A DNA stretch of 10,818 nucleotides from a virus (IMGVR_UViG_3300029816_000030); one strand, 5' to 3'. Numbered from the stretch's first letter, positions 3,160 through 10,446 are shown. Notes: generated from the letters alone by a model not told the origin. Numbers and translations are program-made.

Positions 3160-3403
3160 AACTCTTCCTTTTAGACATGTTAGACGTGAACCTGTCGCAC
3201 GGCAGAGTCGCCGAAAGTTTACGGTTTACCCAAGCTCACAGCTGAAAGCCTTTCTTAGATGTGCACATGCGATATGCTTTGAATGAATTATTAAAAACTT
3301 TACTCTTTTTCAAAATTTCGTATCCTGGCTCGTTAATGTTAAAGAATTAAACGTAAGAAAGTAGTATGTTGAATCGCTTATATCAAAATACATAGGACTC
3401 AAA

Positions 3404-3889
3404 ATGCCAGAACTCGTTGATCCAACAGACTCATTAATTAGTTTTCAATACGCCTTTTCTAATGGTCTGATTAAGCCTTCACCATGCATAGTTCACCCAA
3501 ATATGAAGGTGCTTTTGGATGATGCAGAGGGTACACCACGGTTTACTTATGCATTCTTTGAAGGAGAAAATGTTAAAGGTGTTGCTATATATGTCCCTGC
3601 AGAGTTTGTTGAAGGTAAACCATGCTTTGGCGTTGGCTATGCAGTAGCCGATGAATATAAAGCGCAAGGCATCGGTACTCAACTTCTCATCGCCAGCATT
3701 GAAGAAATGCAATACGGATTTAGAAATTCCTTCAATGAATTCTATGTAGAGGCTATTGTCGGGGTTGGTAATCAAGCCTCCAACAAATTAGCTGCAAAAG
3801 TTTTATCTGATACTCCTGAGCCAGGGACAGATTCTTACTCAGGAAAACCTATCAATCAGTACATGAAACTTTTCAAAACCACAAAATAA
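3404..3889 (+). CDS. GNAT-fold N-acetyltransferase-like protein (moron, plus strand)
   Basis: 161-aa ORF, ATG start with AGGA Shine-Dalgarno 6 nt upstream; GNAT motif-A-like GVGYAVADEYKAQGIGTQLL and motif-B-like NQASNKLAAKV; AT-rich relative to flanks; opposite strand to all neighbours; followed by a hairpin terminator. Confidence 0.5.
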   Translation: MPELVDPTDSLISFQYAFSNGLIKPSPCIVHPNMKVLLDDAEGTPRFTYAFFEGENVKGVAIYVPAEFVEGKPCFGVGYAVADEYKAQGIGTQLLIASIEEMQYGFRNSFNEFYVEAIVGVGNQASNKLAAKVLSDTPEPGTDSYSGKPINQYMKLFKTTK

Positions 3890-3899
3890 CTACCATTCT

Positions 3900-3921
3900 G
3901 GCGCAGATTTTTGCGCCTTTT
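3900..3921 (+). terminator. rho-independent terminator of the GNAT moron
   Basis: GGCGCA-gatttt-TGCGCC hairpin (6-bp stem) followed by TTTT, starting 11 nt after the moron stop codon; no T-run on the other strand, so it is unidirectional. Confidence 0.5.
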
Positions 3922-4067
3922 CAGGTTTGCAGTTCACCTGCCACGCTTTGTTATGCACCTGAATGTCCCGCTTCGTCTGTTGCATTATCATAAGTAATAG
4001 CGTAGGTTGACACCTTGGCTCTCTTTCGCCACCGGCGAATCTTTAGCGGATTATCCTTGGCCGTTTT

Positions 4068-5948: not shown

Positions 5949-6023
<75 letters not shown>

Positions 6024-6139
6024 ATCCTGGAACTCGGCTACCTGATTTTCATTCTGCACTGAATATCGAGAGAAGCTCTCTTTATTCGAGCCGGTAAGCG
6101 AACTTATCGTCTCGGGCTACGCCATCGCGTGGCCGAAAT

Positions 6140-6224
<85 letters not shown>

Positions 6225-6232
6225 GGACTTGA

Positions 6233-6308
<76 letters not shown>

Positions 6309-6310
6309 AC

Positions 6311-6387
6311 TGGACCGCCACCGGGGACTCGAACCTCGCACACTCAACTTAAAGGGTTGACGCTCTTTCCTGATGAGCTAGTGGCGG
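6311..6387 (-). tRNA. atypical tRNA or tRNA-like gene (anticodon loop CCUUUAA, predicted anticodon UUU/Lys, with C33 and C1-G72)
   Basis: 77 nt, CCGCCACTAGCTCATCAGGAAAGAGCGTCAACCCTTTAAGTTGAGTGTGCGAGGTTCGAGTCCCCGGTGGCGGTCCA; perfect 7-bp acceptor stem, D stem GCTC/GAGC, anticodon stem TCAAC/GTTGA, T loop TTCGAGT, one A-C mismatch in the T stem, encoded CCA. Position 33 is C rather than the near-invariant U. Confidence 0.5.
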
Positions 6388-6388
6388 C

Positions 6389-6464
6389 TGGTGGCCCTTG
6401 CTGGATTTGAACCAGCGACCTGGCGATTATGAGTCGCTCGCTCTCACCACTGAGCTAAAGGGCC
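6389..6464 (-). tRNA. tRNA with CAU anticodon, ileX/ileZ-like (probable tRNA-Ile2 reading AUA after lysidine modification; elongator Met not excluded)
   Basis: 76 nt, GGCCCTTTAGCTCAGTGGTGAGAGCGAGCGACTCATAATCGCCAGGTCGCTGGTTCAAATCCAGCAAGGGCCACCA; anticodon arm core GCGACUCAUAAUCGC and acceptor C4-G69/C5-G68 match E. coli ileX as I recall it. Confidence 0.85.
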
Positions 6465-6565: not shown

Positions 6566-6593
6566 GCACAAAAAACCCGCTTGTGGGCGGGTT
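6566..6593 (-). terminator. rho-independent terminator (tR'-like) downstream of the late promoter; hairpin with A-run and T-run flanks, possibly bidirectional
   Basis: AACCCGC-ttgtgg-GCGGGTT hairpin at 6574-6593; on the minus strand it is followed by TTTTTTGTG and on the plus strand by TTTGTTTGCTTTT. Confidence 0.6.
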
Positions 6594-6646
6594 TTGTTTG
6601 CTTTTGCCATCACGTACAAAATCGGCAAAATATCAGATTTGCATGA

Positions 6647-6675
6647 AATATATGCCTTTCAATCTACTTTTGCAA
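6647..6675 (-). promoter_or_regulatory. late promoter pR'-like, with a downstream -10-like pause element (putative Q-loading region)
   Basis: Minus strand: -35 TTGCAA (6675-6670, inside the 3' end of the Q-like gene), 17-bp spacer, -10 TATATT (6652-6647); then TGATATTTT (6635-6627), an extended -10-like element in the initial transcribed region; terminator about 50-70 nt downstream. Confidence 0.45.
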
Positions 6676-7348
6676 CACTTTGCTTTGAAAATGCCGCCTT
6701 TTGTTTTGAACGTGTTCTCATTACAAACAATAAAGCCTCACTATCCAGTCGGTGAAAAATGTGTTTCATTGCAACCCAGTGACGAGTAAATGTTTTGGAC
6801 CAGTTTTTAGTTGTCACTCCCGCCAGTAATGCCAGCTCCTGGTATTCATAACCTTCCCCACCAAAAAGTTCTGCTTTTACTGCCTGCGCCGCCAGCCAGA
6901 TTAATTTTTTCAGGCGTTCCTGCGTTTTCCCTGCAATTTTTTTGGTACCGGATTGAGTATTAAATTCATTCCACGCCCACTGTGTTATCGCGATCTGATA
7001 TTCCCAACAAATACTCCCGCTGTAACACCACAACAACCAGGCTTTATGATGTTCTTCAAGAGACAGAACAGCCCGCCGCCACGATGATGTCGAAAACTCA
7101 ACCGGACTGACGAGAGGAATTGACGTCCCCTTCGCCAGCGATTGCTTTCCCGGGATTGGTGGATTATCCCGCGTTATCATTTTTCCAGTCACTTCATCGC
7201 GGTACCGGATTTTTTTACGCCTGTAACGCCCTGTATCAAACATGGCATTCTCCTGCCAGGCCTCAAGCTGCCCTTTTGTTGATCCACTCAAATCGGCGGT
7301 GGCAATCATGAGTTGCTCACGAACAAACTGTAAATACTGGTTATTCAT
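6659..7348 (-). CDS. putative late-gene antiterminator Q (QuuQ-like)
   Basis: 229-aa ORF, ATG overlapping the rusA stop (ATGA); immediately upstream of a pR'-like promoter, short terminated transcript and the lysis genes. Assignment is mainly positional; the sequence was not confirmed by search. Confidence 0.5.
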   Translation of the reverse strand: MNNQYLQFVREQLMIATADLSGSTKGQLEAWQENAMFDTGRYRRKKIRYRDEVTGKMITRDNPPIPGKQSLAKGTSIPLVSPVEFSTSSWRRAVLSLEEHHKAWLLWCYSGSICWEYQIAITQWAWNEFNTQSGTKKIAGKTQERLKKLIWLAAQAVKAELFGGEGYEYQELALLAGVTTKNWSKTFTRHWVAMKHIFHRLDSEALLFVMRTRSKQKAAFSKQSVAKVD

Positions 7349-9213: not shown

Positions 9214-9369
9214 TTACTCCTCAGGTTCGTAAGCTGTGAAGACAGCGACCTCCGTCTGGCCGGTTCGGATTCGTACCTCGCAGAGGTCTTTCCTCGTTAC
9301 CAGTGCCGTCACTATGACGGTTAAACAGATGACGATCAGGGCGATTAACATCGCCTTTTGCTGCTTCAT
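9214..9369 (-). CDS. hokD: Hok/Gef-family type I toxin (HokD/RelF-like, 51 aa)
   Basis: MKQQKAMLIALIVICLTVIVTALVTRKDLCEVRIRTGQTEVAVFTAYEPEE matches HokD/RelF as I recall it; ATG at 9369 preceded by AAGGAG Shine-Dalgarno; the ORF track's 70-aa version (to 9426) is an in-frame upstream extension. Confidence 0.8.
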   Translation of the reverse strand: MKQQKAMLIALIVICLTVIVTALVTRKDLCEVRIRTGQTEVAVFTAYEPEE

Positions 9370-9545
9370 AGCCTGCTTCTCCTTGCCTTTCGGCACGTAA
9401 GAGGCTAACCTACATGTGTTCAGCATGGATTGAGCCTCAGATTAATGTTAAGCGTCTTGCAGGACGCGTAATGTTAACTGGGGCTTTTCTCTATCTGCCT
9501 TTTGGTGTTCATGCCTGAGGCAGATAGCCTCAAGCACCCGCAGCA

Positions 9546-9574: not shown

Positions 9575-9606
9575 TATGAAATCAATCAGAAAGGTGATCC
9601 ATAAAA

Positions 9607-10293
9607 TCACTCCTTCTCTTCTTTTCCGTAGTGGAGTTGGCCAATTTTGATAAGAGGGCGCCCCTGAGATTTGCGGTGTAGATTGGTATCGCGCAGAGAA
9701 TACACACAGCCACAATATTCCTGCTGATAGAATTTTTCGCGCTTGCTGATTTCAATCATACGGGACGAGCCGCCCTGCTTGCGCCAGTTATAATCCCAGT
9801 ACACCATACCCGGATAATGCGCAACAGCTCGCCGCCCACACTCGTTAACCTGCTGCATATTTTTCCAGCGTGAAATGCCCAGTGAACTGCTGATCACACT
9901 GAAACCATTTTCAGCAGCGTACAACGCTGTCCGCTCAAAACGCATGTCAAAACACATGGTACAACGGATCCCCCTCTCAGGCTCCCATTCCATTCCTTTG
10001 GCACGTTCAAACCAGTTGTCGGTGTCGTAATCAGCATCGATAAACGGCACGCCGTGTTGTTCAGCAAAGCGAATATTTTCATCCTTACGAATTAAATACT
10101 CTTTCTGAGGATGAATGTTCGGGTTGTAGAAAAAGATGGTGTAGTCGATTCCCGAGGCCTGAAGCGCCTCCATCACTTCACCGGAACATGGAGCACAGCA
10201 AGAGTGCAGTAGTAGTTTGTTTGCCCCGTTTGGGAGCTCCAATTTAGGCCGTTTGAAATCAGCAATAGTCATAAATATTTTTATTGGGGTCAT
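9607..10293 (-). CDS. QueH-like (DUF208) putative epoxyqueuosine reductase
   Basis: 228-aa ORF, ATG start (alternative ATG at codon 8); N-terminal [11 protein letters not shown] and C-terminal EYCGCVYS cysteine motifs as I recall for DUF208/QueH; no clear Shine-Dalgarno; flanked by 153-bp and 180-bp non-coding gaps. Confidence 0.5.
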
Positions 10294-10446
10294 GAAAATA
10301 GCACAGAGTGTAGCATCAGAGCAGGGCTATCGGGAATATATGTCTAAATCTGGTAATATCTGGTTTTGACGCAAAGCGGACAACCACGCTGGCTCTACCC
10401 TGCGCCATGAAAATGTCAATTCACATCTGAACTAATGCTCTTTAAT

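Follow-up and report, generated by a model that had tools for sequence, protein, structure and literature searches.

Queuosine (Q) synthesis in E. coli ends with the reduction of epoxyqueuosine (oQ) to Q, and the enzyme responsible for this step, QueG, depends on cobalamin and Fe-S and is not homologous to QueH. According to its title, the work of Frey et al. (1988) demonstrates for E. coli and Salmonella that oQ is reduced to Q in a cobamide-dependent manner, and PMC11841063 counts QueG as one of the cobamide-dependent enzymes of E. coli. QueH is, according to PMC5372724, a non-orthologous replacement for QueG, both enzymes catalysing the conversion of oQ to Q on the same tRNAs. The QueH family (PF02677, COG1636), with the Thermotoga maritima structures 7LC5, 7LC7 and 9DEU, shares six cysteines, other invariant residues and the predicted fold with the protein analysed here, and a typical QueH differs from it in that the latter is carried on a lambdoid prophage whose host already has QueG. 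Zallot et al. (2017) reportedly used duf208 genes of other bacteria to restore the oQ to Q step in a queG mutant of E. coli, and Acinetobacter baylyi is reported in the same work to carry both QueG and QueH naturally. By these reports, both QueH activity in the E. coli cytoplasm and the coexistence of the two enzymes have precedent. The coexisting, functionally redundant reductases reported for A. baylyi ADP1 resemble the situation in queH-positive E. coli, with the difference that the second reductase gene of ADP1 is chromosomal whereas queH of E. coli is delivered by a prophage and is found in only ~18% of strains. A third point of reference is the relBE cargo (‘moron’) slot of the Qin prophage, which lies at the same position with respect to hokD, DUF968 and Q as the slot described below and is likewise of variable presence in similar prophages; the cargo of the Qin slot is a toxin-antitoxin pair, whereas that of the present slot is a tRNA-modification enzyme with no terminator of its own found. 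The DNA considered here is a stretch of 10,818 nt of viral origin (IMGVR_UViG_3300029816_000030), which as a whole is referred to as the window. In our assessment its queH gene probably encodes a functional, cobalamin-independent QueH that is accessory cargo of a lambdoid (Rac/Qin-like) prophage.

Family assignment and start codon of the prophage gene

The original prediction had assigned the gene to DUF208/QueH from its cysteine motifs. A search against Pfam gave a significant match over the full length of the QueH profile PF02677 (positions 1-174 of 175) with 221.5 bits (cut-off 23.5, E 1e-65), while an NCBIfam profile search with the window protein returned no hit at E <= 0.01. The closest solved relative found by phmmer was T. 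maritima QueH (E 8e-22), and the entries for this protein (7LC5, 7LC7, 9DEU, 9DCO and 9D86; E ~1e-21) were the only sequence relatives of the window protein in the PDB. In an alignment of 14 sequences comprising the window protein, T. maritima QueH, six chromosomal and six distant homologs (33-86% identity), all 23 invariant columns were present in the window protein; these include the cysteines C32, C33, C111, C114, C194 and C196 and the further residues H30, N57, N59, P62, E65, Y66, R69, R110 and Q191. The cysteines of the presumed metal site are conserved alongside the family match. C9 of T. maritima QueH (variant C9S in PDB entry 9D86) aligns with window C32 and its Asp13 (variant D13N in 9DCO) with window Cys36, and these two variants show which positions the depositors of the T. 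maritima structures thought important. Because at least 90% of the sequences in the alignment have Cys in the Asp13/Cys36 column and T. maritima alone has Asp, CCAPCS is the family norm and T. maritima the outlier. T. maritima QueH also has ~25 fewer C-terminal residues, and the extra tail of the window protein is common to other gammaproteobacterial copies.

An AlphaFold model of the window protein, built on 24 sequences and of moderate confidence (mean pLDDT 70, pTM 0.72), was compared with the PDB by Foldseek. The top five matches were all T. maritima QueH (E 6e-9 to 3e-8, target-normalised TM 0.76-0.79), and the next tier consisted of the sulfurtransferases TtuA and LarE at E 8e-5 or weaker and with lower TM-scores. 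The protein further showed 80-86% identity to QueH-named proteins of Erwinia, Providencia, Proteus, Photorhabdus and others. Together, the Pfam score, the conserved residues and the predicted fold bear out the family assignment, and the window protein is a genuine QueH in every family feature that can be checked computationally.

ORF calling recovered the expected 228-aa reading frame at 9607-10293 on the minus strand, with HSCCAPCS (residues 30-37), RCTMC (110-114) and YCGC (193-196). The ATG at 10293 is not conserved among related copies and would add seven non-conserved residues; the ATG at 10272 (Met8) is kept in 6/6 aligned copies and is the start used in RefSeq WP_000150294.1 (221 aa). 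Judged from the aligned copies, the real start of queH is probably at 10272 rather than at 10293. As had been noted for this gene, no Shine-Dalgarno sequence could be read before either ATG. The G+C content of queH is 48.3% against 49.8% for the window, and this comparison does not point to a foreign origin. The coordinates of queH and of the features discussed below are collected in Table 1.

Table 1. Positions of queH and associated features in the window
Feature	Coordinates	Strand	Description
queH CDS from conserved start	9607..10272	-	221 aa; stop codon 9607-9609; from ORF, PF02677 and RefSeq start
TGCTACACT, candidate extended -10 element	10307..10315	-	~34 nt upstream of ATG 10272, first base 43 nt upstream
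Shared queH cassette (~740 bp)	9600..10343	-	blastn homology extent; ORF plus ~50-70 nt upstream, almost nothing downstream
hok/sok regulatory RNA region	9364..9539	-	Rfam RF01794 sok, 120.5 bits (gathering score 59)
tRNA-Tyr(GUA) (6140-6224) with both spacers	6024..6232	-	exact copy of host thrU-tyrU-glyT segment

Cargo slot, cassette boundaries and candidate promoter

The genes of the window are ordered DUF977 (Ren-like), queH, hok/sok, an ORF of unknown function, DUF968, rusA, antiterminator Q and a tRNA array, followed beyond the array by holin, DUF1327, lysozyme, Rz, HNH and terminase genes, and these neighbours are typical of a Rac/Qin-like lambdoid prophage. The corresponding order in Qin of K-12 is relB-relE-hokD-rem-ydfU(DUF968)-ydfT(Q); with the window reading queH-hokD-orf-DUF968-rusA-Q, queH does occupy the relBE slot of Qin, as the original prediction had it. 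Since only 9 of 54 DUF968-anchored viral loci that span this slot carry QueH, the gene is variable cargo, and this variable presence together with the relBE position upholds the earlier reading of queH as inserted cargo. The non-coding gaps by which queH had been said to be flanked were found in length (174 nt upstream and 180 nt downstream), but the downstream one is not empty: the hok/sok region occupies most of it, as a neighbour of queH and not as part of it. The Hok/Gef ORF at 9214-9426 matches Pfam PF01848; together with a longer overlapping reading frame and the strong Rfam sok match it makes up a complete type I toxin-antitoxin locus, hok/sok, at 9214-9539 on the minus strand, immediately downstream of queH. 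A PADLOC search for defence systems with QueH, the GNAT protein described next and a 135-aa ORF returned no match.

The window holds a further segment (3160-4067) of low G+C content (37-42%), in which a GNAT acetyltransferase ORF (3404-3889, plus strand) lies on the opposite strand, as an insertion that separates the lysis genes from the HNH/terminase genes. This segment looks like a second piece of cargo. It was found at 80% coverage or more in 63 complete genomes and with some match in 271, and RefSeq names the product a GNAT family N-acetyltransferase; the protein had no PHROG match, and the gene is absent from the related prophages of contig L252 and of strain IHE3034.

The boundaries of the queH cassette were drawn from blastn comparisons with the copies of a Shigella prophage, Enterobacter and Scandinavium, in which homology had its upper limit at 10343, 10337 or 10322 and its lower limit at ~9600. 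Since the copies of Enterobacter and Scandinavium are homologous to the window DNA only between 10337 or 10322 and ~9600, the mobile unit is the ORF with ~50-65 nt of upstream DNA. Outside Escherichia and Shigella the closest proteins are those of Enterobacter, Scandinavium and Kluyvera (86-91%) and of Erwinia (85%), and queH of Erwinia amylovora has ordinary chromosomal neighbours. Among the relatives compared, the DUF977-QueH-Hok arrangement is common to the loci of E. albertii and Shigella flexneri only. In the nearest relative outside Escherichia, that of Enterobacter hormaechei (91%; L171 5181-5885), queH directly follows a 234-aa fragment of the phage integrase family, with metabolic and regulatory genes making up its other surroundings, and it may be mobile there too. 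In many Erwiniaceae (L183-L187, L189, L191, L197, L199-L203, L207, L212 and L232) a chromosomal queH lies ~1-6 kb upstream of tRNA-Asn(GUU). Although this is a queuosine-substrate tRNA, the proximity is probably conserved synteny without functional meaning.

Upstream of the conserved start, the candidate extended -10 element TGCTACACT is kept in 6/6 aligned copies despite divergence of the surrounding upstream DNA. Of 79 genome loci, 23 have the pattern TGnTAnnnT at -50 to -30 of the start, compared with 1.1% of random windows; at the same position, Erwinia, Serratia and Sodalis have -10-like boxes of other sequence than TGCTACACT. The element was recognised through comparative alignment only; a simple -35/-10 scan reported neither TGCTACACT nor any above-chance promoter upstream on the queH strand, and a terminator scan near queH found none. 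Because the scans gave no promoter and no terminator, the argument for autonomous expression of queH is the conservation of the -10-like motif. By this argument the cassette has probably retained the core of its native promoter, and transcription in the lysogen would then be plausible.

Distribution of queH and possible roles of a second reductase

The original prediction had named the B12-dependent QueG as the enzyme E. coli itself uses, and queG (K-12 b4166) was indeed found in all 5,426 complete E. coli genomes and is a core gene of the species. The 687-bp queH was found in 995 of the same genomes (~18%), in 985 of them at 80% coverage or more, and its location in complete genomes was almost always chromosomal. 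With queG in every genome, the prophage copy of queH always duplicates a function of its host in E. coli. Among the RefSeq matches listed, every row bears the name ‘epoxyqueuosine reductase QueH’. Phage resources label the same family otherwise: PHROG 3217, the phage family that holds QueH, is given as ‘unknown function’, and a protein 95% identical in the cultured temperate phage HannyBb as ‘hypothetical protein’. The PHROG 3217 profile starts at QueH residue 34 and omits the first cysteines of the CCAPC motif, from which it follows that many phage records may annotate queH from a downstream start, a possible cause of the ‘unknown function’ label. The earlier suggestion that such a gene had not been described for lambdoid prophages is therefore right in one part only: RefSeq already names the gene QueH, whereas literature searches for prophage-borne QueH turned up no discussion of such a copy in the portions of the sources available. 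As the identity of the gene is already in RefSeq, we count the finding as known, and to the mechanism of the enzyme the present analysis adds nothing.

In the following scheme, the mechanism is drawn from what is known of the family, and enzymatic activity, expression in lysogens and benefit are predicted. Located between the replication-region DUF977 gene and hokD, with DUF968, rusA and Q following, queH would encode an iron-sulfur enzyme that reduces oQ to Q at position 34 of the host Asp, Asn, His and Tyr tRNAs without B12. E. coli cannot make B12 de novo, and since QueG requires it, the prophage enzyme would free the last step of Q synthesis from external cobalamin; it would be redundant with QueG when cobalamin is available and the sole route from oQ to Q when it is absent. 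The ~740-bp cassette would derive from a queH of Enterobacterales and would have carried a -10 promoter core of its own along with it, which makes self-transcription in the lysogen plausible, and read-through of the early-right operon in lytic growth may provide an additional route of transcription.

A stronger form of this scheme would make queH a genuine gene of lysogenic conversion, with a promoter of its own that is active in uninduced lysogens. About one in five E. coli strains would then have B12-independent Q, and in niches poor in B12 their fitness, or the way they decode Asp, Asn, His and Tyr codons, would be altered. Many of the strains with exact queH matches are uropathogenic and meningitis isolates, and the niches in question would be, for example, the urine and blood in which such strains live. 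We regard this stronger form as possible but doubtful.

Alternatively, queH may be an auxiliary gene that benefits the phage, expressed only from the early-right operon in lytic growth so that Q-modified tRNAs serve the synthesis of late proteins, and silent in the lysogen. The gene does lie between the replication genes and Q, on the strand and at the position of delayed-early (nin-like) genes, with no terminator found between it and its neighbours, and QueH is present in the cultured temperate phage HannyBb. Yet the promoter-like -10 element is conserved, moved with the cassette and is common to chromosomal copies, and a useful re-modification of the tRNA pool within one lytic cycle seems improbable; lytic use is, moreover, compatible with expression in the lysogen, and the two can coexist. 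Strictly lytic use is on these grounds unlikely.

It might also be held that queH is a hitch-hiking passenger that has no function in E. coli and is kept by a successful prophage backbone. We know of no fitness difference or other phenotype that separates oQ from Q, and queG makes the gene redundant in every case. In PMC11841063, deletion of queG left the assayed growth phenotype unchanged. Against this, dN/dS among the prophage queH alleles was 0.035-0.057 at a dS of 0.16-0.30, that is, among alleles diverged at 16-30% of synonymous sites, and all the alleles compared were intact; QueH within prophages is under strong purifying selection. In addition, the late regions and tRNA arrays that accompany queH vary, implying that the gene has been retained repeatedly through mosaic recombination. 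A functionless passenger is very improbable in the light of these data, and an accessory but functional QueH remains the preferred reading.

The neighbouring tRNA array and the meaning of the locus

ARAGORN called five tRNA genes at 5949-6464 on the minus strand: Gly-UCC, Tyr-GUA, Thr-UGU, Lys-UUU and a CAU-anticodon tRNA. The tRNA-Tyr(GUA) was confirmed at ~3.4 kb from queH, the distance originally given. The segment that contains it is 100% identical to a locus present in 5,426/5,426 complete E. coli genomes, the thrU-tyrU-glyT-thrT-tufB operon, and it is flanked in the prophage by tRNA-Thr and tRNA-Gly genes that are identical to thrU and glyT and form arms of ~77 nt. The tRNA-Tyr of the window is a copy of host tyrU and not a phage-specific tRNA and, being an exact copy with the host spacers, it adds nothing that the host lacks. 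Given the 100% identity of its Thr and Gly genes with thrU and glyT, the prophage array is derived from host thrU-tyrU-glyT. The CAU-anticodon tRNA (6389-6464, minus strand) was called tRNA-Met by ARAGORN, whereas RefSeq labels the identical gene of IHE3034 tRNA-Ile; the latter label implies a lysidine-modified Ile2-type tRNA, like the ileZ-like genes of lambdoid phages. Close to the array, the small RNAs isrK and isrJ of Salmonella prophages have weak Rfam matches at 6566-6650 on the minus strand, which at 22-25 bits stay under the gathering scores. These matches overlap the antiterminator Q gene (6659-7348) at its end as well as a short stretch immediately upstream, and they may be due to chance.

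The original prediction had joined queH and this tRNA into a coherent module for the tuning of translation, in which the prophage would supply a substrate tRNA together with the enzyme that matures it. The two genes do share the window, 3.4 kb apart on one strand, and tRNA-Tyr(GUA) is an established queuosine substrate. The encoded protein is 100% identical across the 80 QueH-anchored viral loci, and removal of duplicates (four contigs) gave 82 unique QueH-positive contigs. Among these, the 44 that reach the downstream tRNA array contain no Tyr, His, Asn or Asp (GUN-anticodon) tRNA, their arrays being of the CAU-Arg-Arg or CAU-Lys-Thr-Gly types, and array type was independent of the presence of QueH (odds ratio 1.24, Fisher p 0.80). 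This survey of the co-occurrence of DUF208 genes with tRNA-Tyr in prophages yielded no instance among these 44 contigs. In the complete E. coli genomes, 995 of which carry queH, there was no place (0/5,426) that covers 80% or more of the window tRNA region; the best places, split into two pieces, cover 79% of it, and their annotation lists tRNA-Ile, Lys, Thr and Gly and no Tyr. The prophage of IHE3034 has a queH region 100% identical to that of the window, yet its array is Gly-Thr-Lys-Ile with no tRNA-Tyr. Conversely, the 515-kb contig L252, which like L253 has the full Met-Lys-Thr-Tyr-Gly array in a prophage ~97% identical to that of the window, spans the queH slot and lacks QueH. With the Tyr segment being moreover an exact copy of host tyrU, spacers included, a co-adapted module is extremely unlikely.

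Three states of the array were distinguished, with L001 9695-10004 and L160 2358-2799 among the arrays compared. The Thr-Tyr-Gly state is rare (the window and L251-L253); a common state has Thr-Gly without tyrU and both spacers; and in the third state, that of L249 and L250, Thr is followed by only the first ~35 nt of tyrU. In the latter two contigs, which come from one isolate genome, the remnant (L249 ~2145-2190, L250 ~3240-3285) breaks at the anticodon loop after GCAGACTG, and the sequences beyond this shared breakpoint differ between the two. The tRNA gene may therefore contain a recombination hotspot or a breakpoint of the integration type.

As no complete genome shows the Tyr segment, it was considered whether the segment is an assembly artefact in which the two identical repeats of ~77 nt were mis-resolved. 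This was largely rejected: the diagnostic Lys-Thr-Tyr junction was found in three independent metagenome contigs and in two viral contigs, the 515-kb contig is ~97% and not 100% identical to the window, and a tyrU remnant is present in two viral contigs. The array with Tyr, then, exists but is rare; it stems from the host, and its distribution is independent of that of queH. Either it represents the ancestral state of the host-captured array, or it arose later by gene conversion from the chromosome.

Finally, a role of QueH on phage DNA within a 7-deazaguanine modification pathway can safely be dismissed, for although phages use enzymes of the queuosine pathway on DNA (PMC6884629 and PMC10516641), neither the window nor the annotated IHE3034 prophage has the partner genes DpdA/Tgt-like, QueC, QueD or QueE, and the protein shares 80-86% identity with QueH of the housekeeping, chromosomal kind. 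No epoxyqueuosine-type base in DNA is, to our knowledge, known.

For the annotation of phages, PHROG 3217 and the HannyBb protein could receive the QueH name, and the tRNA-Tyr near queH is not to be taken for phage adaptation. For E. coli, the meaning of the locus depends on the activity of the prophage enzyme in lysogens. If it is active there, ~18% of E. coli strains would finish Q without B12 while the others would stall at oQ; this would be a phage-delivered, strain-level difference in tRNA modification and a natural system for comparing oQ and Q physiology.
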